Shown: positions 53,603 through 64,000 of the stretch, piece by piece
Numbering within the stretch: the first letter of the stretch is position 1
Layout: each line of letters opens with the position of its first letter
Virus record (IMG/VR): IMGVR_UViG_3300021137_000006
Span: 1 to 64,000 of that record
DNA from: a virus
Length of the DNA stretch: 64,000 nucleotides
Strand: one strand, 5' to 3'
Notes under the pieces: model-generated
What the model was told of the DNA's origin: nothing
Database searches by the model: none
The model's input: the letters and a program-made list of their open reading frames with translations, nothing else
Position numbers and translations under genes: made by a program

Positions 53603-54594
53603 TGTTCGAAACTGAAACACTTGAAAATGTAATTAAACAGAGCGGGATCTTGGGAACGAGGTCTCCCTCTTCCTCAGGTTGGCACATAGTTAAATGCAAG
53701 ATTTGCAACGACTACAAAGCTCGTGCTGGATTTATATTCGAAAATGGTGCTAGCACCTTTCATTGCTTCAATTGCGGCCACGCTGCTGGACATGCCCCAT
53801 CTTCGCAGAAATTCTCAAAAGGCATGTACGAGGTACTAACTGCGTTTAATGTAGACATTTCTGCAGCAAAAAAATCACTCTTCGCCTCGTTTGGTGCACA
53901 AGAAGACACAACGGAAGAAGCGATTCACCGTGAGCAATATCGTCAGCCTCCTCCAATCGAAGTCCCTTCAGAATTCGAATTCCTTAATGTTACTAATCCA
54001 ACCCATGCAGAAGCTATCCGATACACCGAAACCCGGTTCGTAGACTATGCAAAATACGGGTTGATGATATCGACAACAACTAACTCCAGAAACAAGTGGT
54101 ACAAGCGGATCATCGTCCCTATGTACAATCGTTCTAACCAAGTAATCTACTACCAGGGACGAACCTACGACAATCATGCCAAGCGTTGGGACAGTCCATC
54201 TGACCCAAAGGCGAATGTGTTATTTGGTTACCACAATCTTGATGATTACTCCAAAGACTACATCATAATCTGCGAAGGTCCGTTTGACATGATGAGTATT
54301 GACGGTGTAGCAATATTAGGAAGTGAGTTCTCCCCATATCAGATTCGAGTACTTACGGTGAGTAGTAAGAAGAAGATCGTCGTTCCGCAGCGAGATAAGC
54401 GGGGATACGCTCTTGCGTTACAAGCTCTTGAGCAAAACTACTCACTCAGTTTCCCAGATATTGGTGGTGCACAAGATATAAATGATGCGATCGTTAAGTA
54501 CGGAAGACTGTACACTGAGCAGCAAATAGTTGCCAAAATGACATCTTCTAAATACGAAGCGCAACTGAAGCTCGGCATGTGGTGTTCCACATAA
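53602..54594 (+). CDS. DNA primase (gp61-like)
   Basis: CKIC...HCFNCG Zn finger, RIIVP, YQGR, TOPRIM EGPFD and DIND. Confidence 0.9.
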   Translation: MFETETLENVIKQSGILGTRSPSSSGWHIVKCKICNDYKARAGFIFENGASTFHCFNCGHAAGHAPSSQKFSKGMYEVLTAFNVDISAAKKSLFASFGAQEDTTEEAIHREQYRQPPPIEVPSEFEFLNVTNPTHAEAIRYTETRFVDYAKYGLMISTTTNSRNKWYKRIIVPMYNRSNQVIYYQGRTYDNHAKRWDSPSDPKANVLFGYHNLDDYSKDYIIICEGPFDMMSIDGVAILGSEFSPYQIRVLTVSSKKKIVVPQRDKRGYALALQALEQNYSLSFPDIGGAQDINDAIVKYGRLYTEQQIVAKMTSSKYEAQLKLGMWCST

Positions 54595-54615
54595 CTTTAC
54601 TATAACCTCACCTAT

Positions 54616-55212
54616 ATGATCACTTTCCCAAAATACCAACCAATCGCCAACGTCGTACTATCTGTGGATCTCAACAACGCAGCTACCCAGAATTCTACCG
54701 ATCTGCTACCGACGATTGGATACATCGGATTTGCTGAACCCCAAGGGGCAAAGGCAGTAATTGAGATCGATAGCCAAGGTAAAATTCTTGGTACCAATTC
54801 AAAAGCAGCGACAAAGTGGGCAAACGCCAACACCAGGTCGTTACTCTTAATTCACTCTAACCTTGTCGCAGCGCACGGCCTCCTGCCGGACAATATGACA
54901 CTAACCCTGGTTGGTTATATTTTTACAGGTTCGCTCACGCTGATCGACGCCCAGCTCGCCATAGACGGTAAACATAGTGTGTACTGGTTATCAGTCAAAG
55001 TACTCAATGAGTTGGTCGTGCGGGTGAGTAAAGTGCAAACTGCATTTGCTGACAACGCACTGTTCACTGAAATCAATTTCAACCAACCTGAATTGTTCGT
55101 CGAAGCAGCCACTCAAGCTGCAGACGGCGTGCCAATGTTGTGGCAAATCAGTCCCCACACTGAATTTGCAATCGCTCCTGTGCTACGTGACCCGTACCGC
55201 ATTGCTTTGTAA
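54616..55212 (+). CDS. Hypothetical protein
   Basis: 198-aa ORF. Confidence 0.6.
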   Translation: MITFPKYQPIANVVLSVDLNNAATQNSTDLLPTIGYIGFAEPQGAKAVIEIDSQGKILGTNSKAATKWANANTRSLLLIHSNLVAAHGLLPDNMTLTLVGYIFTGSLTLIDAQLAIDGKHSVYWLSVKVLNELVVRVSKVQTAFADNALFTEINFNQPELFVEAATQAADGVPMLWQISPHTEFAIAPVLRDPYRIAL

Positions 55213-55214
55213 TC

Positions 55215-55379
55215 ATGCCAGCAGTTGCACGAAAGGGTGATCCGGATTCAAATGGAGACTCGATTACACAGGGCTCTCCATCTGTTTTTGCAAACGGCCA
55301 ACCTGTTGCACGAAAGGGTGATCCGGATTCAAATGGAGACTCGATTACACAGGGCTCTCCATCTGTTTTTGCAAACTAG
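55215..55379 (+). CDS. PAAR-like spike tip protein (54 aa; absent from the ORF track)
   Basis: MPAVARKGD...ITQGSPSVFANGQPVARKGD...ITQGSPSVFAN. Confidence 0.8.
   Translation: MPAVARKGDPDSNGDSITQGSPSVFANGQPVARKGDPDSNGDSITQGSPSVFAN
55224..55376 (+). repeat. Perfect 72-bp direct repeat, period 81 (55224-55295 and 55305-55376)
   Basis: Identical copies make up the two PAAR units. Confidence 0.95.
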
Positions 55380-55381
55380 CA

Positions 55382-55565
55382 AAACAACCTGTTGACCCAC
55401 TTTGTGAAATGTGTTACATTAGACAAATCGGGTAGCAGAAAAAGTTAAAAAGAAATTTTGAAACAACCTGTTGACCCACTTTGTGAAATGTGTTACATTA
55501 GACAAATCGGTTAGCAGAAAAAGTTAAAAAGATCTGTTGACCCAAAAAGTTTTTTGATTTATAGT
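55382..55565 (+). promoter_or_regulatory. Three tandem sigma70 promoters; the first two lie in a near-perfect repeat of period 79
   Basis: TTGACC-N17-TACATT at 55392-55420 and 55471-55499 (both with TGn); TTGACC-N17-TATAGT at 55537-55565. Confidence 0.85.
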
Positions 55566-55616
55566 TAGCCTTTTGGCATTGAGCCATATATACTCTTACA
55601 GTAGAAAGTTTTTGAA

Positions 55617-55721
55617 ATGTCTTCGTCCTTCGTGATTATTAGCAAACATACAATGAGTGAGCGCTTTAGCGATCGTTCGGATACTATGTGCGCCCTTGTT
55701 CAAGAAGGATGGGATGATTAA
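55617..55721 (+). CDS. Leader peptide of the tRNA array (34 aa)
   Basis: MSSSFVIISKHTMSERFSDRSDTMCALVQEGWDD; AGAAAG upstream; lies between the promoters and a terminator. Confidence 0.75.
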   Translation: MSSSFVIISKHTMSERFSDRSDTMCALVQEGWDD

Positions 55722-55776
55722 AGAATCGTTCTAACCGGATAAGAAACAAGGGCTCCAAATAGGGGCCCTTTTTATT
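55692..55776 (+). terminator. Attenuator: antiterminator (55692-55700 with 55745-55753) versus intrinsic terminator (55748-55773)
   Basis: GCCCTTGTT is the exact reverse complement of AACAAGGGC, which overlaps the 5' arm of AAGGGCTCC-AAATA-GGGGCCCTT-TTT. Confidence 0.8.
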
Positions 55777-55805
55777 GCCTAATCGATCGAGGTTGGTGCA
55801 AGTAA

Positions 55806-55820
55806 GATCATTAAAAATTT
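55806..55820 (+). promoter_or_regulatory. boxA-like antitermination element
   Basis: GATCATTAAAAATTT versus rrn boxA GCTCTTTAACAATTT (12/15), just before the first tRNA. Confidence 0.45.
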
Positions 55821-55834
55821 GCGTGTGTTTTTAT

Positions 55835-55910
55835 CCCTGTGTAGCTTAATGGCTAGAGCAATCGGCTTTTACCCGATCAGGTGTCCGTTCGACTCGGATC
55901 ACAGGGACCA
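55835..55910 (+). tRNA. tRNA-Lys(TTT)
   Basis: CCCTGTG/CACAGGG acceptor; ATCGG-CTTTTAC-CCGAT; CCA. Confidence 0.93.
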
Positions 55911-55925
55911 AAACTTATTCAATAG

Positions 55926-56138
55926 CTGTGTCCTAATTGTCACAGTATCACGGATACTTGGCGCGGTCGAAACAAACCCGCCAATAATGGAAAAAACGTT
56001 GTACAGGATAAAACGTTGTTGCAGCACTTACAAGACGCTCCTAACATCCGTCAAGGATTACTAAGAGCCGGATTAGCAGCAAAAGGCGCTAACTACGAAA
56101 GAGCGAAACAGTTATTGAATAAGAATTTGGGAGCGTAG
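55926..56138 (+). pseudogene. C-terminal remnant of an HNH endonuclease
   Basis: Reads LCPNCHSITDTWRGRN...GLAAKGANYERAK with a stop immediately upstream and no start. Confidence 0.7.
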
Positions 56139-56206
56139 CTCAACTGGCTAGCAGCAATCGGCTCTTACCCGATAGGTTCTGGGTTCAAATCCCAGTGCTC
56201 CCACCA
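56129..56206 (+). tRNA. tRNA-Lys(CTT)
   Basis: ATCGG-CTCTTAC-CCGAT; GGTTCAAATCC; CCA. Confidence 0.93.
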
Positions 56207-56215
56207 CAACATTAT

Positions 56216-56290
56216 GCCCGGACAGCTCATCGGTAGAGCACTCGACTGATAATCGAGCGGTGATTGGTTCGATTCCAATTCCGGGCACCA
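56216..56290 (+). tRNA. tRNA-Ile(GAT)
   Basis: CTCGA-CTGATAA-TCGAG; CCA. Confidence 0.93.
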
Positions 56291-56295
56291 ATTTT

Positions 56296-56370
56296 AGCCG
56301 CGTAACTCAGAGGCAGAGTAATCCCTTGATAAGGGATAAGTCGACATTTCGAAATTGTCCGTGGCTACCA
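56296..56370 (+). tRNA. tRNA-Ile(GAT), second divergent copy
   Basis: ATCCC-TTGATAA-GGGAT; CCA. Confidence 0.88.
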
Positions 56371-56377
56371 GAAATAT

Positions 56378-56455
56378 ATCACTGTCGTCTAATTGGAATA
56401 GGACACTAGACTTTCAATCTAGCAAATGCGGATTCGACTTCCGTCAGTGATACCA
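56378..56455 (+). tRNA. tRNA-Glu(TTC)
   Basis: CTAGA-CTTTCAA-TCTAG; CCA. Confidence 0.92.
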
Positions 56456-56456
56456 T

Positions 56457-56501
56457 ACTTTGTGATCGTCTATTGGTTAGGAGTTCTAACTCATAAATAG
56501 A
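56457..56501 (+). pseudogene. 5' portion of a tRNA-like sequence interrupted by the endonuclease gene
   Basis: TCGTCTATTGGTTAGGA D-arm-like segment, then TCTAA-CTCATAA-ATAGA; a possible 3' remnant ends in GCCA at 57215. Confidence 0.45.
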
Positions 56502-56517
56502 CATAGGAGGACTTTTT

Positions 56518-57198
56518 ATGTCTATGGGTGGTTATCGAGAAGGCTCTGGTAGGAGCAAAACAGGGTACTACAATGGAATCTATTGTGGTAGCACTTACGA
56601 GTTGTGTTGGGTGATATATTCTATAGATCACGGAATTAACTTTACCCGATTTCCGGGATTATTGGAAGCTAATGGTGTCCGGTATTATCCAGATTTCCTA
56701 CTAGGTGACGGTAAGACTATCGTCGAGACGAAAGGGTATGAAGCCCAATTAGCAGTGGATAAGAAAACGGCTGTAGCAATTTCTCATGGGTATGTTGTGC
56801 AAGTTCTCCGTAAGGATGATCTAAAATACGCTTTCGATTATGTATCTGAAAAGTATGGCACCAAGCGATACCACACTTTGTATGATGGATACGCACCGAC
56901 GTATGACTATATTTGTGATTGTTGTGGACAGCCATTTCGAGTCGATTCTAAAAAGAAAACAGAACGAAAATTCTGCAATAGAGTATGTGCGGGTAAATTC
57001 CGAAAACAACTAATCCTGCAACAAGATGACTGGAGAGACCGAATTTCAGCATCCTTAACGGGACGGAAGGTTAAGCCGTATCAAAGAAAATATAAACAAA
57101 AGTGGATTACTGACGGTAAACTTAATACGAAGATTCAGTTTGATCTTTGTATACCGGATGGATTTCACCAAGGGCGAACAAATTCTGTGCAGGACTAA
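56518..57198 (+). CDS. PD-(D/E)xK-type putative homing endonuclease
   Basis: STYEL, YYPDF...ETKG, CDCCG...FCNRVC and KWITDG; AGGAGG RBS and TAAATA upstream. Confidence 0.75.
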   Translation: MSMGGYREGSGRSKTGYYNGIYCGSTYELCWVIYSIDHGINFTRFPGLLEANGVRYYPDFLLGDGKTIVETKGYEAQLAVDKKTAVAISHGYVVQVLRKDDLKYAFDYVSEKYGTKRYHTLYDGYAPTYDYICDCCGQPFRVDSKKKTERKFCNRVCAGKFRKQLILQQDDWRDRISASLTGRKVKPYQRKYKQKWITDGKLNTKIQFDLCIPDGFHQGRTNSVQD

Positions 57199-57220
57199 AC
57201 TCCTCAGCAGTGCCATTTAT

Positions 57221-57295
57221 ATCACGTTGGACTTCTAGTGAGGTCATCTGCCTTTCACGCAGACCAGACGAGAGCGTAACTCGTACGTGATGCCA
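57221..57295 (+). tRNA. tRNA-Glu(TTC), atypical T loop
   Basis: TCTGC-CTTTCAC-GCAGA; T arm ACGAG-AGCGTAA-CTCGT; CCA. Confidence 0.85.
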
Positions 57296-57379
57296 TTTAC
57301 CGCCCATCCTGTGAAGGACCGGCTTCGTGATGACTCGTTTATTGACCGAGGGATACCAAATAGTCAATAAGAATTTTAT

Positions 57380-57457
57380 GGCCTATGAGTCTGCTTGGTG
57401 TGGACGCTACCCTGTCACGGTAGAGATAGATCGGTTCAAATCCGATATAGGTCGCCA
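57380..57457 (+). tRNA. tRNA-Asp(GTC)
   Basis: CTACC-CTGTCAC-GGTAG; CCA. Confidence 0.9.
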
Positions 57458-57507
57458 ATTATGTTCGGGATCGAATCATAAATATGTTCGATCACATGGA
57501 GTAGTGT

Positions 57508-57921
57508 ATGAAGAAAGTATGTTCTAAATGCCAGCAAGAAAAAGAGCTGTCGGAGTTTAGAAAAGACAAATCCCGCAAGGATGGGGTAATGTCAAGCTGC
57601 AAACAATGCACTAGACAGTTTTACAAAAGCCAGTATGTGACAAAGTACGGCGACAAATATGCGACTGCAAACAGAAAGCGTAGAGCTAATCAAGCAGCCA
57701 TGTTGTACGAATATAAGAGTAAGCAGAAGTGCTTATTTTGTGACGAGCGAGAGCCAGTCTGCTTAGAGTTCCATCACACCGATCCGTCAATCAAAGATTT
57801 TGGAGTCGGTTCGAGCGTGGGACGCAACTGGGAAAAGATCCTCGCAGAGATTGAAAAATGTGTGTGCCTGTGCAGCAATTGTCACAAAAAGGTACATGCA
57901 GGTTTATTAATTATACAGTAG
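57508..57921 (+). CDS. HNH endonuclease
   Basis: CSKC...CKQC, CLFC...LEFHH...EIEKCVCLCSNCHKKVH. Confidence 0.88.
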   Translation: MKKVCSKCQQEKELSEFRKDKSRKDGVMSSCKQCTRQFYKSQYVTKYGDKYATANRKRRANQAAMLYEYKSKQKCLFCDEREPVCLEFHHTDPSIKDFGVGSSVGRNWEKILAEIEKCVCLCSNCHKKVHAGLLIIQ

Positions 57922-57990
57922 TAGCATAGCGGCTAATGCACCTCCCTGTCTAGGAGACTACCGCGGGTTCGAGTCCCGTCTACTGTGCCA
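57915..57990 (+). tRNA. tRNA-Asp(GTC), second copy
   Basis: ACAGTAG/CTACTGT acceptor; loop CTGTCTA; CCA. Confidence 0.88.
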
Positions 57991-57995
57991 AATAT

Positions 57996-58067
57996 GGGTA
58001 GCTTAGCATAATGTAAATGCGCTCACGTTGAGTGAGAGATATTGAGCCATCTCAATAGACGCCCCCA
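57996..58067 (+). pseudogene. Degenerate tRNA-like cloverleaf
   Basis: D-arm-like GCAT/ATGC, CTCAC-GTTGA-GTGAG with only a 5-nt loop, ATTGA/TCAAT arm, ends in CCA. Confidence 0.5.
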
Positions 58068-58073
58068 AGTTTA

Positions 58074-58134
58074 AGGATACGAACAGCAAATCTAAACAAT
58101 TTGACCTTTTAATTCAAACCTAAAGTGTATCCTG
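58074..58134 (+). ncRNA. Small structured RNA with a tRNA-Lys-like anticodon stem-loop
   Basis: AGGATAC/GTATCCT outer stem, ACAGCAA segment, inner TTTGA-c-CTTTTAA-t-TCAAA. Confidence 0.55.
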
Positions 58135-58143
58135 TCTTATTTT

Positions 58144-58219
58144 CCACTTCTAGCTGACAAAGTATTAGCGCTGGGCTGAAAATCCAGAGATCCTGGGGCG
58201 GTACCAGGGGAGTGGGCCA
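58144..58219 (+). tRNA. tRNA-Phe(GAA), atypical T loop
   Basis: CTGGG-CTGAAAA-TCCAG; T arm CCTGG-GGCGGTA-CCAGG; CCA. Confidence 0.85.
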
Positions 58220-58226
58220 ATTTTAT

Positions 58227-58302
58227 GCAGCCATAGCTCAGTTAGGAGAGCACCGGATTGAAACCCCGGGTGTCGCTGGGGCGGATCCAGCTGGTTGCAC
58301 CA
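58227..58302 (+). tRNA. tRNA-Phe(GAA), second copy, atypical T loop
   Basis: Loop TTGAAAC; T arm GCTGG-GGCGGAT-CCAGC; CCA. Confidence 0.85.
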
Positions 58303-58333
58303 TTTTATAAATATACTACCTCAGGAGAGTATT

Positions 58334-58657
58334 ATGAAGAAGATTCTTGTAAGTTTACTATTAGCTGTCGCAGCAAGTTCCGCATTTGCTGATCGTTGTT
58401 GCTACCGAGGTGGTTGGGGTCATGGAGGCGGCTGGATCGGTCCAGTACTCAGTGGTGTCATCGGGTATGAAATTGGACAAAGTCAGCGTCAGACGGTACT
58501 CGTGCAACAACAACCTGCGTATGTACAACCTGTGTATGTACAACCTGCTCCGATCATTATCACAGATCCCAACCAAGTTGTAATCAACGGCAAGCTGTAC
58601 CGCAAGCAATTGATGAATATCGATGGCGTAGTGCAGGAAGTGCTCGTAGCACAATAA
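58334..58657 (+). CDS. Small exported protein (signal peptide, Gly-rich, YVQP repeats)
   Basis: AGGAG RBS, TATAAATA upstream, MKKILVSLLLAVAASSAFA signal. Confidence 0.75.
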   Translation: MKKILVSLLLAVAASSAFADRCCYRGGWGHGGGWIGPVLSGVIGYEIGQSQRQTVLVQQQPAYVQPVYVQPAPIIITDPNQVVINGKLYRKQLMNIDGVVQEVLVAQ

Positions 58658-58663
58658 CCACAT

Positions 58664-58737
58664 GGTTCGTTAGCTCAATGGTAGAGCACTGCTTTGACTC
58701 GGCAGACACAAAGGTTCGATTCCTTTACGATCCACCA
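58664..58737 (+). tRNA. tRNA-Val(GAC)
   Basis: CTGCT-TTGACTC-GGCAG; CCA. Confidence 0.85.
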
Positions 58738-58744
58738 AACAAAT

Positions 58745-58832
58745 GGAAGGTTAATCTCACTGGGTGAGACACTGCTTCGAACGCAGTCGGACTCCGCAAG
58801 GGGTTAGAGTTCGATCCTCTATCCTTCCTCCA
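58745..58832 (+). tRNA. tRNA-Ser(CGA)
   Basis: ACTGC-TTCGAAC-GCAGT; long variable arm; CCA. Confidence 0.85.
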
Positions 58833-58853
58833 ATTTTTACAAAGCATAGAGGT

Positions 58854-58926
58854 GTGACGTTAGTGTAGCGGCAGCACCCCAGATTGTGATTCTGTTAGTA
58901 CGGGTTCGACCCCCGTACGTCACCCC
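58854..58926 (+). tRNA. tRNA-His(GTG)
   Basis: GTGACGT/ACGTCAC acceptor, C73, loop TTGTGAT; ends CCT rather than CCA. Confidence 0.85.
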
Positions 58927-58945
58927 TGTGTGCTTTGTAACGTTC

Positions 58946-59022
58946 GGTGCGGTAGTATTATTAGCAATACGCGGTCCTCATAAGGCTGAATGAAGGGAGT
59001 GCAAATCTCCCCCGCACCACCA
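58946..59022 (+). tRNA. tRNA-Met(CAT) (elongator Met or Ile2)
   Basis: CGGTC-CTCATAA-GGCTG; CCA. Confidence 0.85.
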
Positions 59023-59028
59023 AATCTG

Positions 59029-59057
59029 TTGACCTTTTTGGAAATAGGGTAGATAAT
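59029..59057 (+). promoter_or_regulatory. Sigma70 promoter
   Basis: TTGACC-N17-GATAAT. Confidence 0.75.
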
Positions 59058-59085
59058 TACCGTATTGACAAACAAAGGACACAAA

Positions 59086-59274
59086 ATGAAGATCACAATC
59101 CACACTTGCCCTTACAAAGGTTTCCGCCACATCACCGTTGGTGGAGATAGTTCATCTTACACTGCTAACCTGTACGGAAAGTGCTGGAGCGTGTTTTACA
59201 AGGGACAGTTGATTGGTGCTACTCCGAAAGTGCGTCGGATTGAATTCATCATTGCTGAAAGTTTGAAGCCGTGA
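59086..59274 (+). CDS. Small early hypothetical protein
   Basis: AAGGA RBS before ATG 59086. Confidence 0.65.
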   Translation: MKITIHTCPYKGFRHITVGGDSSSYTANLYGKCWSVFYKGQLIGATPKVRRIEFIIAESLKP

Positions 59275-59311
59275 CTAAATACGCTAATACACACAACACG
59301 AAGGTATAAAA

Positions 59312-59668
59312 ATGTCCCCAGAACAATTCTTGACGCTGGCTGGTATACCAGTAACAACACAGATCGTTCGTCGATTGAACGAAGCAGTTAAGTCAGGTGA
59401 TCAGTTTTCACAATCTAAAGCCAGAGTACTGGCGGTGATTGATACTTTCTACCAACAGTACGGGATCAAAGGGTATGTGAATAGGTTCTTTGATGCCGAA
59501 GCTGCAGCCCAGGGAATATTCTTTAAAGCTGAAGTCGGTAATTATAATCCGGAAGAAGTAGATGTGTCGGAAGTACTCGATGAGTTGAATAGCATCCCAG
59601 GAGTGCATGCTGAGGAGTGTTATACGGCAGATCAAACATATGGAGTAGAGATTACAATTAATCGTTGA
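59312..59668 (+). CDS. Late protein with scaffold-like leader
   Basis: TAAATA upstream; QFLTLAGI...RLNE|A. Confidence 0.6.
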   Translation: MSPEQFLTLAGIPVTTQIVRRLNEAVKSGDQFSQSKARVLAVIDTFYQQYGIKGYVNRFFDAEAAAQGIFFKAEVGNYNPEEVDVSEVLDELNSIPGVHAEECYTADQTYGVEITINR

Positions 59669-59693
59669 CTTGTTTGTAGTGTGGTGAGATAAT
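59665..59693 (+). promoter_or_regulatory. Sigma70 promoter
   Basis: TTGACT-N17-GATAAT. Confidence 0.75.
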
Positions 59694-59699
59694 TATCAC

Positions 59700-59876
59700 A
59701 TGAATAAATTTAAAGCACTTGCAGCGAAGTATGATTTCACCTTGTGGTACGATCGTAGTTTGAAATTGTGGTCACTGACTGATAATACAGGTCAGAAAGA
59801 TGCGTATTACTTCACCAAGCACTTGATAGTGTCTGTGTCACTGGAGGCATTCGAACATTATCACTTCAATGACTAG
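59700..59876 (+). CDS. 58-aa hypothetical protein, probably leaderless (absent from the ORF track)
   Basis: ATG 7 nt after the -10 box; MNKFKALAAKYDFTLWYDRSLKLW... Confidence 0.6.
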   Translation: MNKFKALAAKYDFTLWYDRSLKLWSLTDNTGQKDAYYFTKHLIVSVSLEAFEHYHFND

Positions 59877-59877
59877 C

Positions 59878-60093
59878 ATGCTGGTTAAAACTTACAAAAA
59901 TGTGTACAGCTCTGATCTACGAGCGCGAGCAGGGCATCCGCCTGATGTGCTGCAATTGCGAATCGTGGACGAAACTGGAGTCCTCCATTGGGTTGGAGAG
60001 CATGCGCTGCCAGAAGACGATGACGCATATCGTGCGAATCTTAAGCGAGTGAGAGCTCGGTTGGTGTACGCTGCGAAAAAACATGGGTATTGA
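59878..60093 (+). CDS. Hypothetical protein
   Basis: ATG abuts the upstream stop. Confidence 0.55.
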   Translation: MLVKTYKNVYSSDLRARAGHPPDVLQLRIVDETGVLHWVGEHALPEDDDAYRANLKRVRARLVYAAKKHGY

Positions 60094-60132
60094 CCAGTTG
60101 CTAACTTAATCAATTACAACGACTATTGACAT

Positions 60133-60387
60133 ATGATATACAAACAAACGGTTATCGCAATTTCTATTCACCAAACGGGTGTGAATCCAATCTTCGGTGA
60201 AGGTGCCACGCACGTTAAGTTGTGTGATGATGCAGCTGGGTATTTCATTGAGTTGAGTCAGGCAGACGAATCTGCTGAAAATGGTGTAGTGCGATTTGAC
60301 CCAACGGAATGGGAAGCAATCAACGCTGCAGTGAAGACGCTGCTAAATAGCGCACCAGTTGCAGACAACTTTGCTAGTGTTGTATAA
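60133..60387 (+). CDS. Hypothetical protein
   Basis: NPIFGEGATHVKLCDDAAGYFIEL. Confidence 0.65.
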   Translation: MIYKQTVIAISIHQTGVNPIFGEGATHVKLCDDAAGYFIELSQADESAENGVVRFDPTEWEAINAAVKTLLNSAPVADNFASVV

Positions 60388-60397
60388 TAAGAATATT

Positions 60398-60485
60398 GGG
60401 GTGTGGAGGTACTGGGTACCAAGCGGCTTTGAATACCGTTCCACTGTTAATAGCGGTGATAGTTCGATTCTATCACGCCCCGCCA
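60398..60485 (+). tRNA. tRNA-Ser(TGA)
   Basis: Loop TTTGAAT, long variable arm, G73, CCA. Confidence 0.82.
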
Positions 60486-60491
60486 AGATTT

Positions 60492-60583
60492 GGAAGATTT
60501 TCTAGTCAGGGATACTAGCCGCGCTTGGAAAGCACGTGGAGCGTCAATGTGCGCCGGAGGTTCGAATCCTCAGTCTTCCGCCA
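60492..60583 (+). tRNA. tRNA-Ser(GGA)
   Basis: Loop TTGGAAA, long variable arm, G73, CCA. Confidence 0.85.
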
Positions 60584-60591
60584 TGAAATGT

Positions 60592-60708
60592 AGTTGCTCC
60601 TGCTGGGCCAGGAGTTCCCACCGAGGGTAGTATGCTATTCGATTCAGCTGAAAGTATGGTACACATAAATCCGCACGGTTCGGAAAGGTTCGAATCCTTT
60701 AGCAACTT
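60592..60708 (+). ncRNA. tRNA-like RNA with acceptor stem and T arm but a non-canonical middle of about 85 nt
   Basis: AGTTGCT/AGCAACT stem stacked on AAAGG-TTCGAAT-CCTTT; no CCA. Confidence 0.55.
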
Positions 60709-60716
60709 CGTATATT

Positions 60717-60791
60717 GCCCTTGAAGTGTAGACAGCGACACACTTGTTTCGTAATCAAGAGAGTGGTGGGCAGGTCACCACAAGGGCACCA
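60717..60791 (+). tRNA. tRNA-Thr(CGT), atypical T loop
   Basis: Loop TTCGTAA; T arm TGGTG-GGCAGGT-CACCA; CCA. Confidence 0.83.
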
Positions 60792-60871
60792 TTTAAAAGA
60801 GTTTTCGTCCCCTGCGAGAATTCTTCTAAATGGTCGGATTTTTCAGACTATATACATTAAGCGGATACAGA

Positions 60872-61288
60872 ATGGCGTACAGCAAGCACAATATAACATG
60901 CTTACACTGTGGCACGGAGCGAGAACAGAGCAAACACTCAGCAAGAGGAAAGTTCTGTTCAAACAGGTGTCAAGTTGATTACCAGTACAACCAGTTTATA
61001 CAGCGTTGGTTAGCTGGCGAGGAGACTGGTTTGAGTGGACAGCGTGGAATAAGTTTGCACGTTCGACGTTTTGTATTTGAAAAGTTTGATAGCAAGTGTG
61101 TTGAGTGTGGCTGGAATCAAAAGCACCCAACAGATGGTCGAATTCCACTGGAAGTAGATCACATAGATGGTAACTGGATGAATACGACGGAATCTAATTT
61201 GCGGTTGTTGTGTCCAAACTGTCATTCACTTACGATAACTTATAAGTCGAGAAATCGACAGAGTAGTAGAAAGTACAAGCCCGATTAG
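60872..61288 (+). CDS. HNH endonuclease
   Basis: FCSNRC, CVECG and LEVDHIDGN...NLRLLCPNCHSLT; ATG 60830 is an alternative start. Confidence 0.9.
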   Translation: MAYSKHNITCLHCGTEREQSKHSARGKFCSNRCQVDYQYNQFIQRWLAGEETGLSGQRGISLHVRRFVFEKFDSKCVECGWNQKHPTDGRIPLEVDHIDGNWMNTTESNLRLLCPNCHSLTITYKSRNRQSSRKYKPD

Positions 61289-61426
61289 CTCAGGGGTAGA
61301 GCAACCGCCTTTTCGGAGAGGATAATGACCTCTCTCCACAGGAGATTCTCACGAGTCTCCTGTACAGGAGGATAACTCCAAAAGGTAAGCGGTAGGTCGT
61401 CTGTTCGAATCAGACATTGGGCACCA
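61279..61426 (+). tRNA. tRNA-Thr (TGT or GGT) with a 73-nt insert in the anticodon
   Basis: Canonical halves GCCCGAT...ACCGC-CT(T) and (G)GTAA-GCGGT...GTTCGAAT...ATTGGGC-ACCA flank three hairpins. Confidence 0.85.
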
Positions 61427-61433
61427 AAATTTA

Positions 61434-61508
61434 GCTCCTAAAGTGTAGATGGCGACACACTGGTTTTGTAATCCAGAAAGCGAGGTTCAAGTCCTCGTGG
61501 GAGCACCA
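61434..61508 (+). tRNA. tRNA-Thr(TGT)
   Basis: Loop TTTGTAA; CCA. Confidence 0.9.
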
Positions 61509-61513
61509 TATAT

Positions 61514-61588
61514 GGGTCGTTAGTTCAGCGGTAGAACTCTATCCTTACACGGTAGCTGTCGGCGGTTCGATCCCGTCACGACCCACCA
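61514..61588 (+). tRNA. tRNA-Val(TAC)
   Basis: CTATC-CTTACAC-GGTAG; CCA. Confidence 0.93.
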
Positions 61589-61594
61589 CCTTAT

Positions 61595-61669
61595 ACGCGG
61601 GTAACTCAGAGGCAGAGTAACTCTGTTACATAGAGAAGGCCGGGATTTCGAAATTCCCCCTGCGTACCA
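61595..61669 (+). tRNA. tRNA-Val(TAC), second divergent copy
   Basis: CTCT-GTTACAT-AGAG; CCA. Confidence 0.85.
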
Positions 61670-61673
61670 ATTT

Positions 61674-61748
61674 GCCCATTTATTTCAGTGGTAGACAGCT
61701 TTCTTGGTAAGAAAGAGGACATTGGTTCAATTCCAATAATGGGCACCA
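61674..61748 (+). tRNA. tRNA-Thr(GGT)
   Basis: CTTTC-TTGGTAA-GAAAG; CCA. Confidence 0.9.
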
Positions 61749-61792
61749 CTTATTGCCACCAATTCCCAGCAATCTCTGCTGTAAGTAACTAC

Positions 61793-62506
61793 ATGGCAAA
61801 AATCTTCTTACGCTTACCATCCACGTCTTCAGTGGACCTACGACCAGATGCTGATTATGTTATCAATCAGCAATCGTACGGCTCTTGTACAGCAAACGCA
61901 GGGTGCGCGTGCATGGAAATTATGTACAAGCAACGTAATGATGTGTCGATCGAATTTAGTAGATTGTTTTTATACTTCTGTGAGCGGACATTAGAAGGTG
62001 CACCCGACGACGATGTCGGTGCACCGGCTGTTCTAATTGGAGAATCTTTACTAACTTACGGAGTGTGCAAAGAAGAATTGTGGCAATATAATAAAGAGAA
62101 TATGTTCGATACTCCACCCCAAGCTGCGTTTGATCAAGCACTCTCTTATAGAATTGCTGGATATCGACTATTAGATGGAGCCTTACTTACCGCAATTAAA
62201 ACCAGTTTGAATAACGGTGTCCCAATTTTGCTTAGTTTAATTGTAACAACGTCATTCAGAACCTTGACGGGACCCTGGAAGACTCATAACTGGAACACTA
62301 CAATAACACGTAGTAATAAAGTACTCGGTGGACACGAAGTTGCGATCATTGGATATGATGATGCTGCTAAGCGACTGTTAATTGAAAATTCCTGGGGACG
62401 CGGATGGGGAGATGGTGGATTCGGCGGCATTCGATATAGCGCTATCGATTCTCAACTATTCGGAGACCTGTGGGTCCTACAACCAAATTTTGCGACTGTA
62501 TCATAA
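61793..62506 (+). CDS. Papain-like (C1) cysteine peptidase
   Basis: VDLR, NQ..YGSCTANA, SRLFLY, GGHEV..IGYD and NSWG..WGDGG; start moved to ATG 61793 to avoid the tRNA. Confidence 0.9.
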   Translation: MAKIFLRLPSTSSVDLRPDADYVINQQSYGSCTANAGCACMEIMYKQRNDVSIEFSRLFLYFCERTLEGAPDDDVGAPAVLIGESLLTYGVCKEELWQYNKENMFDTPPQAAFDQALSYRIAGYRLLDGALLTAIKTSLNNGVPILLSLIVTTSFRTLTGPWKTHNWNTTITRSNKVLGGHEVAIIGYDDAAKRLLIENSWGRGWGDGGFGGIRYSAIDSQLFGDLWVLQPNFATVS

Positions 62507-62568
62507 CTGGATAATGTCCAACCTTGCGAGGGTTGATTATGGAGGTTCAAGTCCTCTCGGTCGCACCA
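62492..62568 (+). tRNA. tRNA-Arg(GCG)
   Basis: CAACC-TTGCGAG-GGTTG; CCA. Confidence 0.88.
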
Positions 62569-62599
62569 CTAAATAAACACACGCAATTTTGATAGTTTT

Positions 62600-62685
62600 G
62601 GAGAAGTGGCGAAATGGTAGCCGCACTTGTTTGCTAAACAAGCACTGGAAACGGTGTGCAGGTTCAAGTCCTGTCTTCTCCGCCA
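62600..62685 (+). tRNA. tRNA-Ser(GCT)
   Basis: CTTGT-TTGCTAA-ACAAG; long variable arm; CCA. Confidence 0.92.
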
Positions 62686-62710
62686 ATTTATACAACTAGG
62701 AGCTTAACAC

Positions 62711-62881
62711 ATGGCACGCAAGCACGGTAGAGAACTAATTAAACTAGAGTCCACATCCGGTTCAGGACACTTCTACACAACTGACAAGAATAAGAAGACT
62801 ACTCCGGGGAAACTGGAGTTCAACCTGTACGACCCAATCATTCGCAAGCACGTCGCTTACAAAGAAGTTAAGCTCAAATAA
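62711..62881 (+). CDS. rpmG: 50S ribosomal protein L33 (Zn-free type; absent from the ORF track)
   Basis: [56 protein letters not shown]; AGGAG RBS. Confidence 0.93.
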
Positions 62882-62887
62882 CAGAAT

Positions 62888-62993
62888 TTTGTAGTTAAGT
62901 CGGTCAGACTTTGGTAAAGGCGATGCGGAATGGTTTAGGCCACGTTAAATATCGAAGCGCATCTTAATGATAATGTGTGCAGCCTACTACAAA
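62888..62993 (+). ncRNA. Candidate structured RNA
   Basis: TTTGTAGT/ACTACAAA closing stem and GATGCG/CGCATC inner stem. Confidence 0.4.
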
Positions 62994-62996
62994 TAT

Positions 62997-63074
62997 GCGT
63001 CCGTAGCTTAACTGGATAAAGCACTGGAATTCGAATCCAGTAGATTGCACGTTCAAGTCGTGTCGGGCGCACCA
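62997..63074 (+). tRNA. tRNA-Arg(TCG)
   Basis: CTGGA-ATTCGAA-TCCAG; CCA. Confidence 0.9.
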
Positions 63075-63119
63075 TTTTACCCTACTGTGATAAATAAAGT
63101 ATCACACATAGGGCTCACC

Positions 63120-63410
63120 ATGTCTCTCAACACTGTCTCTACCATATACGACTACGATATCGCTGATATCGCGTACTTCATCGTACCTCGCACACAAGCT
63201 GATACTACCTTCAAGCAGATCTCATTAAAGAAGTGCCAAATCCTTGCAAAACGCAGCTACGTTCAGCCAACTCAATCGACTCCGACTATTATCGGACCAA
63301 ACATTTCAGTTGTTCAGTATGATGTCAGATTCCTAGACAACACTACTCTCACGGTGATTCCGTCCCAACTACTCTCAGGGATTGAAGCTGTTGCTAACAT
63401 CATTGCATAA
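63120..63410 (+). CDS. Late hypothetical protein
   Basis: ATG 63120 downstream of TAAATA (63091-63096). Confidence 0.55.
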   Translation: MSLNTVSTIYDYDIADIAYFIVPRTQADTTFKQISLKKCQILAKRSYVQPTQSTPTIIGPNISVVQYDVRFLDNTTLTVIPSQLLSGIEAVANIIA

Positions 63411-63433
63411 ATAACTGAAATAATCCACATACT

Positions 63434-64000
63434 ATGTCATCACTACTAGAACGCCTCGCCAACATGGCTGGAGTCTCACTAAAAGAATCTGAGTTCCCTC
63501 GGTTCAAGACTATCAAGATTCCTCTAGTCGATGTCGGTCTCGATGATCAACCAGAAGCTGTCATTATGCAGTTCGCGCAAAAAGTCGCAGAACAGAATGA
63601 CGTACTAACAATCGAAGACTGTCGCGTTAACCGTAAGGCTGGTACTCTTGAATTTGATCCAATGTTGTCAAACGGGGAAGTATCACCGCGTCAAATCGCA
63701 GCTTTCCGCAGCTTCGCAATGGATTTTTTGAGCGATCCTGAAAACATTGACACGTACGAGAGCGTGCAAAAAGGTAAAACTGAAGATACTGCTAACTATG
63801 AAAAAGTACTCGGACATAATAATGCAATGTCGGGCTCTAGGCATCCAACAGCTATAAAACTAAAAACCGCACCTAAGGGATATAAGTTTAATGCTACTGG
63901 TCATCTCATACAGGAAGCTACTGGTAGCAACACACCGTATGATGAACTTGGTGCTTGGAAAGCTGCTGCAGCGAAAGCTGGTCTTGAAGTGTATTCACAA
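63434..64000 (+). CDS. Late protein with scaffold-like leader (3' truncated by window edge)
   Basis: TAAATA upstream; MSSLLERLANMAGVSLKE|S...LIQE|A; open to the window end. Confidence 0.65.
   Translation, partial: MSSLLERLANMAGVSLKESEFPRFKTIKIPLVDVGLDDQPEAVIMQFAQKVAEQNDVLTIEDCRVNRKAGTLEFDPMLSNGEVSPRQIAAFRSFAMDFLSDPENIDTYESVQKGKTEDTANYEKVLGHNNAMSGSRHPTAIKLKTAPKGYKFNATGHLIQEATGSNTPYDELGAWKAAAAKAGLEVYSQ

Follow-up and report, generated by a model that had tools for sequence, protein, structure and literature searches.

The DNA analysed here is a viral stretch of 64,000 nt (the window; positions 1–64,000 of IMG/VR record IMGVR_UViG_3300021137_000006), in which a jumbo-phage array of tRNA genes is preceded by what is, on the evidence of its sequence and that of its relatives, likely to be a ribosome-mediated (leader-peptide) transcription attenuator. 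The phage probably makes the tRNAs of this array mainly when ribosomes slow on the codons that match them. A sequence-only reading of the region had proposed such an attenuator, with host nucleases that destroy tRNAs as the trigger. The attenuator is supported by the comparative tests described below; the nuclease trigger is not, the sequence favouring defence no more than supply and demand. Coordinates are those of the window, and the promoters, the leader with its pairing segments, the terminator and the array all lie on the + strand.

Promoters, leader ORF and tRNA array

Three tandem promoter sequences were recognised upstream of the array. By pattern, P1 (55392–55420) consists of TTGACC, a 17-nt spacer and TACATT with a preceding TG; P2 (55471–55499) is a tandem repeat copy of it, again with TTGACC and a 17-nt spacer; and P3 (55537–55565) has TTGACC, 17 nt and TATAGT (10 of 12 matches). 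P1 and P3 are kept in relatives. The 20-nt core of P1 and P2 was matched twice in the pattern count, against 0 expected, and occurs nowhere else in the window, and the P1 unit is conserved in L002, L044, L041 and L058. Promoter-like sites between 54500 and 64000 are no commoner than in shuffled sequence (19 vs 16.9, sd 4.0), so that the case for P1–P3 rests on the tandem repeat and on conservation. An internal promoter-like site within the array (59029–59057) could feed its distal half, bypassing the attenuator.

The 5' untranslated leader (55566–55602) contains the block TTAGCC...CATATATAC, which was delineated by alignment and exact-pattern scan and is invariant in all three copies of this leader (leader 1). 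The ATG of the leader ORF lies about 45 nt 3' of the start expected from P3, and a purine tract, AGAAAG (55603–55608), which is weakly Shine-Dalgarno-like, lies 8 nt 5' of it. In a subset of the genes of this phage AAAGGA is found 6–9 nt 5' of the ATG, and many have no obvious site. The ORF itself (55617–55721; ATG, 34 codons, TAA) specifies the peptide MSSSFVIISKHTMSERFSDRSDTMCALVQEGWDD. Both the sequence and the ORF list place it where it had been described, between the three promoters and the first tRNA and followed by a terminator.

The 25 tRNA genes of array 1 (55835–63074) serve K, I, E, D, F, V, S, H, M, T and R. Strict ARAGORN returned 20 of these; Rfam added Phe GAA (58227–58299), Thr CGT (60717–60788) and Val TAC (61595–61666), the anticodons of which were read by eye, and relaxed ARAGORN added a second Phe (58145–58220) and a Thr (61280–61427) split by a 73-nt insert. 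The two programs together recovered the 25 tRNAs serving exactly 11 amino acids that had been read from the sequence alone, along with one doubtful intron-bearing call from relaxed ARAGORN. Interspersed among the tRNAs are HNH endonuclease genes, small ORFs, a papain-like protease and bL33. Many of the array-1 tRNAs have atypical loops.

The codons of the leader match this array closely. Under standard wobble, array-1 anticodons can read every one of the 23 post-ATG codons from 2 to 24, and by hand tally these codons draw on 14 of the array's 19 different anticodons. The 11 amino acids of codons 1–24 are those that the array serves, as had been claimed, and the statements made about isoacceptors (four Ser tRNAs; Arg codons of the CGY type only) were right. 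The earlier chance estimate of 2e-7 becomes P ~1.6e-6 with the codon use of the phage itself; in 37 long ORFs, with 17,247 codons in all, the 31 in-set codons make up 56%. Among the 483 ATG ORFs of at least 25 codons on the 81.9-kb contig, the longest in-set run is that of the leader, at 23 codons, with 10 for the next best; the next best among all 2,514 ATGs of the contig is 11.

Terminator, antiterminator and the proposed switch

The intrinsic terminator (55748–55776) has arms at 55748–55756 and 55762–55770 that form a terminator-like hairpin of 9 pairs, 6 of them G-C, around a 5-nt loop (AAATA), followed by a T-rich tail (TTTATT). The hairpin has a predicted energy of -15.2 kcal/mol here and of -13.4 to -16.1 across all five leaders of the clade, in each of which the terminator pairs are kept. 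Segment A, GCCCTTGTT (55692–55700), occupies leader codons 26–28 and is the candidate 5' strand of an antiterminator; segment B, AACAAGGGC (55745–55753), is its 3' strand and shares 6 nt with the 5' arm of the terminator. The complementarity of A and B, reported in the sequence-only reading together with this overlap, is an exact 9-nt match; when the 163 upstream bases were shuffled 200,000 times, 0.27% of the shuffled sequences had one of this kind. Segment A is invariant in the three leader-1 copies and, among the differences listed, in the variant X11 as well. A and B form 9 of 9 pairs in all five clade leaders, a T-A pair of leader 1 being G-C in leader 2; this both-sides change supplies the compensatory change that had been called for, and covariation among the five distinct clade leaders compared is that of this one pair. 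The A:B pairs were tabulated by script; the MAFFT alignment had placed a gap within segment A. Between the stop codon and segment B the distance is 23–28 nt across the clade leaders. The spacer from the terminator to the first tRNA (55777–55834), defined by alignment, is nearly invariant between G000 and G001 and is better conserved than the tRNA-Lys gene that follows it.

In the switch that we propose, transcripts from the three sigma-70-type promoters would start with the 34-codon leader. A ribosome slowed at roughly codons 1–17 would let segment A remain unpaired; free A would pair with B as it emerges, no terminator hairpin would form and RNA polymerase would enter the tRNA genes. With fast decoding, the ribosome would lie over A, or in the A–B interval, during synthesis of B and C; the terminator would then form, and most transcripts would stop at about 55776. 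Since the first 24 codons are all from the array set, slow decoding of any of them would favour readthrough, and the leader would act as an OR-gate with inputs from about 11 amino acids and no fewer than 14 anticodons. The outcome would be negative feedback, the array being made when its own products or their host equivalents run short. We infer from these features that the leader is translated, and likewise the direction and size of the regulation and its physiological trigger.

Folding with a ribosome footprint, modelled as 30 masked nucleotides, produced the switch expected. With the A-site at codons 1–16 (leader 1) or 1–17 (leader 2), the nascent RNA as far as B pairs A with B. For leader 1, segment A is masked with the A-site at codons 22–33; for leader 2, masking sets in at about codon 19 or 20. 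A ribosome on the stop codon (k = 34–35) leaves A uncovered in this model, and A:B pairing is predicted again, so that the OFF state would need timing, steric hindrance or refolding of A with an upstream segment. Such a segment 1 (55621–55643), a predicted anti-antiterminator, appeared in the consensus fold of the three leader-1 copies as naked RNA, which folds well (z = -3.2). Its pairing with the antiterminator strand, and hence the refolding, is predicted for leader 1 and not for leader 2, in which it is not dominant and the fold without a ribosome already has A paired with B. The terminator is present in every thermodynamic fold of the full transcript; antitermination would therefore have to be kinetic. 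The consensus fold of the leader-1 copies also contains an internal hairpin over codons 13–21 (55654–55679), possibly an RNA polymerase pause hairpin.

Leaders and arrays in related phages

In relative G001, whose primase is 69% identical, the leader is kept: 34-codon copies with 23 of 23 codons in-set are found in G001 (L002, 13318–13422) and in L044 (669–773). Where leader 1 differs between relatives, the change is either synonymous, at the third position, or an exchange of one in-set residue for another (such as S/F, S/T, D/T and T/D), one of these exchanges being a three-base codon change (GAT to ACC). The ORF is free of indels, which begin just past the stop codon. In-frame composition, synonymous or in-set changes and the lack of indels before the stop are indirect signs that the leader may be translated. 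In the X11 variant of leader 1, codon 8 is GCC in place of ATT (Ile to Ala). No Phe tRNA was found in the fetched parts of array 1 of G001, the leader of which has two Phe codons.

The sequence-only reading had predicted a second array, for the remaining amino acids, with a matching leader of its own, and this was found in two relatives. About 29 kb further on, G001 carries Trp, Pro, Tyr, Asn, Pro, Ala, Leu, Leu and Cys tRNAs (array 2) behind three promoters of their own, a 35-codon leader and a terminator of the same type; exactly two such terminators occur in G001, one for each leader. Twenty of the 21 codons in the head of this leader 2 come from L, P, A, G, Q, N, Y, C and W (binomial 6e-7). 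Leader 2 of L051/L058, with 34 codons, has 19 of 21 head codons in the set (8e-6) and precedes Tyr, Asn, Pro, Gln, four Leu, Trp and Cys tRNAs, its five Leu codons facing four Leu isoacceptors. Each leader fits its own array and not the other one, as the logic of such a circuit would demand, the heads of leaders 1 and 2 differing with a Fisher p of 1.2e-11, and ORF length is 34–35 codons in all five clade leaders. On this evidence the clade would divide its tRNA genes among two or more regulons of this kind, whose leaders complement one another. Between relatives the leader-2 peptide shows swaps such as L/Y, Q/P and A/L, with its composition kept. Foreign codons in leader 2 number one or two (V; T and R). 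Gly tRNAs lie 3' of array 2, yet the leader-2 heads have no Gly codon; no Gln tRNA was found in the fetched parts of array 2 of G001, the leader of which has five Gln codons. The ORF tails were tried as an opposite-set cross-control and dropped, the counts varying too much: array-1-set to array-2-set residues are 4:6, 6:4 and 6:4 in the leader-1 tails and 11:2 and 7:5 in those of leader 2.

A more distant comparison is offered by G002, a 324 kb jumbo phage with a primase 24% identical, whose tRNAs are sorted differently. Two G002 leaders, unrelated in sequence, track the sorting of that phage, with 34 of 36 codons in-set in one and 39 of 44 in the other, where the final run is 33; both ORFs rank at the top of 422 small ORFs, and set-exclusive residues agree between leaders and arrays with a Fisher p of 1.6e-9. 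That leader content should co-vary with array content had been proposed as a check, and the G002 leaders follow suit. The end of the ORF itself would serve as the antiterminator strand in G002 leader A, and this strand would be masked solely with the ribosome at codons 33–38. No leader and terminator module was seen by eye in the 700 nt upstream of the G003 array (L185) or of G002 array C (before the Ser genes), a reading by which one could have been overlooked.

Relatives were sought in several ways. In GenBank phages, megablast with 55000–58000 and blastn with 55380–55830 gave no match, and the best tblastn hit with the primase was 28% identical. Exact and degenerate scans of IMG/VR with the terminator, the back-translated leader, the 5' leader block and the promoter core returned only G001. 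The degenerate terminator pattern was set aside as too generic, with at least 119 stretches; of 118 loci screened, none had a tRNA downstream. A contig scan with primase alignment gave 14 pattern matches, none of them confirmed. The metagenome scan with the promoter core gave 22 stretches, three of which are true relatives (L044, L051 and L058); the other 19 were dropped, their flanks being unrelated. Ten further primase homologues at 57–82% identity were found, one of them on a 320-kb contig. RNA runs X22–X24 match only tRNA-like stretches with unlike flanks and leave 55380–55823 uncovered, and have no bearing on expression.

Precedents and alternative explanations

Multivalent attenuators are known in amino-acid operons: the thr leader responds to Thr and Ile and that of ilvGMEDA to Ile, Leu and Val, and trp, his, leu and pheA are controlled in the same manner. 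The phage leaders resemble these in having a short ORF with regulatory codons, a terminator before the first regulated gene and a mutually exclusive antiterminator with its 5' strand inside or close to the ORF, the position of the ribosome being the signal. Ribosome stalling is the signal in attenuation of the trp/his type (PMC1183508). The genes regulated there are for enzymes, whereas here they are tRNAs; the amino-acid leaders use runs of one to three amino acids, whereas here nearly the whole ORF is used and 9–13 amino acids are involved. In addition, the phage leaders cover most of the anticodons of their arrays and form several complementary regulons per genome. A cmscan of 54000–64000, with E up to 1, matched none of the Rfam leader families (Trp, His, Leu, Thr and Phe) and no T-box; its only matches were the tRNA clan and three weak Plastid-ycf2 hits antisense to tRNAs.

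The attenuator of E. coli pheST (the pheM leader) controls phenylalanyl-tRNA synthetase. It is likewise a case of leader-peptide attenuation of the translation apparatus in which the decoding speed of a product's own codon is reported, but it is cellular rather than viral, deals with a single amino acid and has a protein enzyme as product. T-box riboswitches also choose between terminator and antiterminator according to the state of a specific tRNA, and control translation-related genes, but they bind uncharged tRNA through a specifier codon and the T-box bulge, with neither ribosome nor ORF. The trn operon of Anabaena sp. PCC 7120 is likewise a long spare tRNA array, normally silent and switched on by stress when translation is impaired (PMC8421152). 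Its control is through the ribbon-helix-helix repressor TrcR (PMC10272220), and it differs from the phage arrays in this protein repressor and in being bacterial and plasmid-borne; it is not known to have a codon-matched ORF, and the terms 'attenuat', 'leader' and 'terminator' do not occur in PMC8421152 (2021). A literature search found no published account of leader-peptide attenuation of tRNA genes. The accounts found of such attenuation all concern protein-coding operons, namely those for amino acids, antibiotic resistance and a few others.

If the attenuator reading is true, the virus gauges how well the infected cell decodes each codon and supplements only the tRNAs in short supply, and the sorting of jumbo-phage tRNA genes into blocks is explained. 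The rule that the text of a leader equals the content of its block would then find regulons and predict co-regulated tRNAs, and the leader would be a compact natural sensor of tRNA availability, portable into reporters. The leader would name the shortages that matter to the phage, so that the question of why phages carry tRNAs would become directly testable. A tentative extension, which we regard as possible and rather doubtful, is that giant phages run a near-complete tRNA complement as demand-driven regulons, each block with a 'roster' leader that covers almost all of its anticodons and lets transcription through once any of them is read slowly, a many-input sensor of translation stress. This logic would have arisen, or been retained, in lineages separated down to 24% primase identity. 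Nuclease cleavage would be among the inputs and would be answered with resistant tRNAs, and leaders would be rewritten as tRNA genes move.

The same switch might instead be a counter-defence sensor that turns on replacement tRNAs once those of the host are destroyed by its anticodon nucleases or by other defences aimed at tRNA, which we think unlikely. An OR-gate over many anticodons would register the loss of any single tRNA, atypical loops are found in many of the array tRNAs, and phage tRNAs are reported to replace those of the host and rescue infection from tRNA-targeting defences (PMC10264068, PMC11555353 and PMC12409363); sensing or attenuation of the tRNA genes is not mentioned in the available portions of these papers. 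Nothing in the sequence, however, favours defence over supply and demand; detection of nucleases would need no coverage of all 20 amino acids in two regulons, and an identical signal would come from decay or dilution of host tRNA over a lengthy jumbo-phage infection. Speculatively, the anticodon nucleases of the host (PrrC, RloC, AriB and VapC) may be one input among several.

Because a stalled ribosome reports on charged tRNA, lack of any amino acid of the set would also open the switch, and the leader could be a sensor of uncharged tRNA, like the classical biosynthetic attenuators, rather than of tRNA abundance. This seems quite improbable: extra tRNA brings no relief from amino-acid starvation, and the feedback would be without benefit, while the way in which leaders are sorted by array and draw on several isoacceptors of one amino acid (four for Ser in leader 1 and four for Leu in leader 2) points to the sensing of tRNA species, not of amino acids.

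It is very improbable that the ORF is untranslated, the leader acting as RNA only, as a constitutive partial terminator or a processing signal, with a codon pattern that is a by-product of RNA constraints. The weak Shine-Dalgarno-like site, the extension of high conservation to non-coding flanks, the good fold of the naked RNA and the resemblance of A:B followed by TCCA to an acceptor stem would all agree with this, but it leaves unexplained the in-frame set membership in four unrelated leaders of two lineages, the multi-base codon swaps that stay in the set, the indel-free frame with indels just past the stop and the fit of each leader to its own array. That the ORFs are functional micropeptides sharing a terminator-bearing early transcription unit, with a coincidental resemblance to the arrays, is hardly credible: small early phage genes with their own terminators are common, but here composition is kept while the peptide changes, as in leader 2, the ORF tails are free to diverge and the chance figures are 1e-6 to 1e-11.

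One further observation concerns the attenuator itself: the A:B pairing with TCCA added is identical to that of the tRNA-Thr(CGT) acceptor stem, a likeness that raised the idea of the leader as a decayed tRNA gene.

Leader 1 and its tRNA array

The virus contig of which the window makes up the first 64 kb is 81,867 bp long (G+C 45%). Its primase is 25–28% identical to the primases of jumbo phages of 340–380 kb (e.g. RsoM2USA and the 121Q group), and its closest relative retrieved, G001, is a 110-kb contig rated 32% complete; by these two features the window is taken to be part of a jumbo phage, of freshwater metagenome origin. Strict ARAGORN settings gave 20 tRNA genes in array 1, Rfam added three (anticodons Phe GAA, Thr CGT and Val TAC, read by eye), and relaxed ARAGORN settings yielded two more, another Phe gene and a Thr gene interrupted by 73 nt, as well as one doubtful call, which makes the count of 25 in the sequence-only reading a fair one. 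The amino acids they serve are confined to K, I, E, D, F, V, S, H, M, T and R, and no further tRNA was found elsewhere in the 81,867-bp contig.

The control elements lie on the plus strand between a PAAR-motif gene (PF05488; 55215–55379), which immediately precedes the promoters, and the start of the first tRNA gene at 55835. They comprise three tandem promoter-like sequences with TTGACC and a 17-nt spacer (55392, 55471 and 55537; the first two share a core with no other copy in the window), a 34-codon leader ORF (55617–55721), recognized in the sequence and the ORF list, with a weak ribosome-binding site, a terminator-like 9-bp G+C-rich hairpin with a T tract (55748–55776), and a 58-nt spacer (55777–55834) before the first tRNA gene. 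The complementarity behind the proposed antiterminator is present in the sequence: GCCCTTGTT (codons 26–28) is exactly complementary to AACAAGGGC, 6 nt of which are common to the 5' arm of the terminator, and 0.27% of 200,000 shuffles produce such a match.

The 31 codons readable by the array account for 56% of codon use in 37 long ORFs of this phage. Under the phage's own codon use, the run of 23 in-set codons in the leader head (codons 2–24) has P = 1.6e-6, and the next-longest run is 10 among 483 ATG-initiated ORFs of at least 25 codons in six frames, or 11 among all 2,514 ATGs. Leader 1 stands alone in this respect, and the correspondence between leader codons and array that was originally observed is confirmed. 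By our own tally the 23 codons sample 14 of the 19 distinct array anticodons, among them three or four of the four for Ser.

Leaders and arrays in related phages

An IMG/VR primase search returned one close relative, G001 (69% identity). Metagenome contigs were also scanned with the promoter core, an anchor independent of the leader sequence, and three of the 22 stretches obtained were true relatives. The leader recurs, again with 34 codons, in G001 (MFSSSVIISKHTMSERFSDRSDDMCALVHVGVEF) and in the metagenome locus L044 (MFSTSVIISKHTMSERFSTRSDDMCALVHVGVEV), and 23/23 head codons are in the set in each case. They differ from the window by synonymous third-position changes at codons 3, 4, 14, 15 and 21 and by replacements that stay within the set (S/F, F/S, S/T, D/T and T/D), one of which alters all three codon bases. 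The differences listed for a fourth variant, on a contig of the DNA sequencing run X11, include synonymous ones (codons 3, 4, 7, 14 and 15) and replacements within the set (codons 2, 5, 22 and 23); the one listed that leaves the set is at codon 8, ATT to GCC (Ile to Ala). The six tail codons of leader 1 vary freely, the position of the stop codon is constant, and indels start directly 3' of it. The two antiterminator strands, segments A (55692–55700) and B (55745–55753), and the terminator are unchanged or compatibly changed among the leaders, the comparison within the clade covering only five distinct leaders.

A second array with a matching leader of its own had been predicted beforehand, and it is present in G001 about 29 kb beyond array 1. 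This module has three promoters and a terminator like those of the first, a 35-codon ORF (MNAVLLNQQPLCAQPNYWLQQAFVHSFSASSVETL), and genes for Trp, Pro, Tyr, Asn, Pro, Ala, Leu, Leu and Cys tRNAs; those for Tyr, Asn and Ala appear at relaxed thresholds only, with sound cloverleaves. The head of leader 2 in G001 was taken as the 21 codons after the ATG, up to and including codon 22 (Ala), with which segment A begins; 20 of these are from the complementary set L, P, A, G, Q, N, Y, C and W (binomial 6e-7), the exception being one Val. The metagenome loci L051 and L058, identical across the leader, have MTALYLNPQPLCLQPNYWLQRAFVHSFLEGSGYC, with 19/21 codons in the set (8e-6); behind it lie an insert-bearing tRNA-like gene and then Tyr (two), Asn (two), Pro, Gln, Leu, Trp, Leu, Cys, Leu and Leu, and five Leu codons of the leader cover four Leu isoacceptors. 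Between the two versions of leader 2 residues are swapped (V/L, L/Y, Q/P and A/L) and the set is retained; the heads of leaders 1 and 2 differ with Fisher p = 1.2e-11. Foreign codons amount to one or two in leader 2 and one Ala codon in one variant of leader 1. G001 has exactly two terminators of this type, one for each leader. The end of the window's contig (81427–81617) aligns about 3 kb upstream of the second leader of G001; the second module of the window's genome probably lies just beyond the contig end. Phe and Gln tRNAs are absent from the parts of the G001 arrays examined, although the leaders retain Phe and Gln codons; as the G001 contig represents a third of a genome, these genes may be located elsewhere.

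A distant jumbo-phage contig, G002 (324 kb, IMG/VR, rated 86% complete, primase 24% identical), has 48 Rfam tRNA matches, and ARAGORN placed 45 tRNA genes in three blocks within the two stretches examined. Block A serves Y, N, K, Q, D, R, M, I, E, L, P, W and A, and 34/36 residues of the 37-codon ORF ahead of it belong to that set. Block B (P, R, V, F, C, T, H, L and M) is followed by block C (S, G and L), and the ORF ahead of B has 39/44 residues, including the last 33, in the set of B and C together. Both were the top-scoring among 422 small ORFs from three G002 loci, and set-exclusive residues divide 29:2 versus 5:23 (Fisher 1.6e-9). These leaders have no sequence in common with that of the window, and the sorting of amino acids is not the same either, with K, I, E and D grouped with N, Q, Y, W and A in G002 and with F, V, S, H and T in the window. 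Leader content therefore covaries with block content. By eye, no leader/terminator module was seen within 700 nt upstream of G002 block C or of the array of a further genome, G003.

RNA pairing and proposed control

Segments A and B form 9/9 standard pairs in all five distinct leaders (GCCCTTGTT/AACAAGGGC in leader 1; GCCTTTGTG/CACAAGGGC in leader 2, ending in GGGT in L058), and the terminator pairs in 5/5. The terminal A:B pair is T-A in the leader 1 family and G-C in the leader 2 family, both sides having changed, and two pairs of leader 2 are G-U wobbles. A C to T change in segment B of L058 retains both antiterminator (G-U) and terminator (U-G). The stop codon lies 23–28 nt from B, and the A-B loop measures 44–46 nt in leader 1 and 61 nt in leader 2.

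In the predicted fold of naked leader-1 RNA the ORF forms a long imperfect hairpin that sequesters A, with the terminator behind it (-60.4 kcal/mol, z = -3.2); this is also the consensus of three leader-1 copies, with five pairs retained through changes on both sides. Folding with a ribosome footprint, an earlier suggestion, was run on the transcript just after B emerges, pairing being forbidden within 30 nt. In this model B pairs with A when the A-site is at codons 1–16 (leader 1) or 1–17 (leader 2), and a ribosome at codons 22–33 in leader 1, or from about 19–20 in leader 2, masks A and leaves B free for the terminator. The terminator is present in every full-length minimum-energy fold; as in trp, then, kinetics must decide between the alternatives. 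With the ribosome at the stop codon (k = 34–35) the simple footprint model leaves A uncovered, and the OFF state would then depend on timing, on a ribosome inside the A-B loop, or on segment 1:A refolding. In leader A of G002 the strand pairing with the terminator 5' arm consists of the last two codons and the stop codon; in the footprint fold it is free with the ribosome at codons 1–31 and masked at 33–38, a geometry of the classical leader-peptide attenuator type.

The matching leader of the second array, the A:B pairs, the footprint folds and the G002 covariation all support the original proposal of a leader-peptide attenuator. Judged from sequence, the codon-matched element is quite probably a ribosome-mediated attenuator exerting negative feedback on tRNA supply, with OR-gate logic across many anticodons. 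Slow decoding at any point in the leader head would leave A free, A:B would form and pre-empt the terminator, and the array would be transcribed; fast decoding would allow the terminator to form. Because the head is written in array-served codons, the feedback would act on the supply of those tRNAs, whether of host or phage origin. One possible trigger is a fall in host tRNAs as a long infection proceeds; others are the codon requirements of late genes and an attack by tRNA nucleases of the host. The nuclease trigger, favoured by the sequence-only reading, seems rather unlikely.

The element would work like the multivalent leader-peptide attenuators of thr and ilvGMEDA, to which it conforms in leader ORF, terminator and antiterminator, and would be a variation on established leader-peptide attenuation, applied to tRNA genes. 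An Rfam scan of 54000–64000 (E up to 1) gave no leader-family or T-box match, and no published account of leader-peptide attenuation of tRNA genes was found in the full texts searched, a collection with few subscription journals. The closest published parallel found comes from Anabaena, where a silent tRNA array is induced by translational stress and reported to be controlled by a protein repressor, TrcR (PMC10272220); the words attenuat-, leader and terminator are absent from the 2021 paper on that array (PMC8421152).

Other features of the tRNA region

The PAAR-motif ORF region (55200–55380) contains an internal tandem duplication of about 72 nt. The spacer following the terminator (55777–55834) and a 29-nt block of the 5' leader (within 55566–55602) are near-invariant across the window, G001 and L044, exceeding the adjacent tRNA-Lys gene in conservation, and TTATTG, GATCG and TCATTAAAAATT are shared with leader 2 on the 3' side of the terminator; these blocks may be processing or factor-binding sites. 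Cover in RNA sequencing runs is confined to the tRNA-like parts of the region. The antiterminator helix (55692–55757) starts with GCCCTTG...CAAGGGC, followed by TCCA, and the same 7 bp form the acceptor stem of the array tRNA-Thr(CGT) (60717–60788), there with ACCA behind. In G001 the Thr(CGT) stem is altered to GCCATTG/CAATGGC and its leader counterpart is unaltered. The helix may mimic an acceptor stem, for example to give RNase P a site on readthrough RNA, or it may preserve a trace of how the switch arose.

Several array tRNAs (58145–58303, 57221–57295 and others) have atypical T loops, e.g. GGCGGAT or GGCGGTA and not TTCGAAT, and fall under the ARAGORN default threshold or are absent from the Rfam matches; array tRNAs sharing one anticodon have very different bodies. 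Rfam and ARAGORN also revealed tRNA genes with short inserts (16–73 nt) in or beside the anticodon loop, scoring 36–54 bits with the Rfam tRNA model, at 61280–61427 of the window (plus strand) and, on the minus strand, at L040 7346–7450 and 14735–14845 (G001), L041 1847–1949, and L058 13059–13159 and 1323–1434; in L058 such a gene is the first past leader 2. The inserts are far shorter than group I introns and could be introns, extended anticodon arms or decoys. A G001 tRNA (L040 1783–1853, minus strand; 44 bits on Rfam) has the anticodon CTA according to ARAGORN, would read the amber stop and is a possible suppressor.

Three HNH-type endonuclease genes identified with PHROGs (56518–57198, 57508–57921 and 60830–61288, plus strand) are interspersed in array 1, homing endonucleases in phage tRNA regions being a known arrangement. 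The array also encloses, on the plus strand, a papain-family cysteine protease domain (61739–62506; PF00112, 44.5 bits), its gene just 3' of tRNA-Thr(GGT) (61674–61748), and a 56-aa homologue of ribosomal protein bL33 (62711–62881; Pfam PF00471, 57.6 bits, cut-off 25), which is probably co-transcribed with the array. A promoter-like site at 59029, inside array 1, could feed its distal half.
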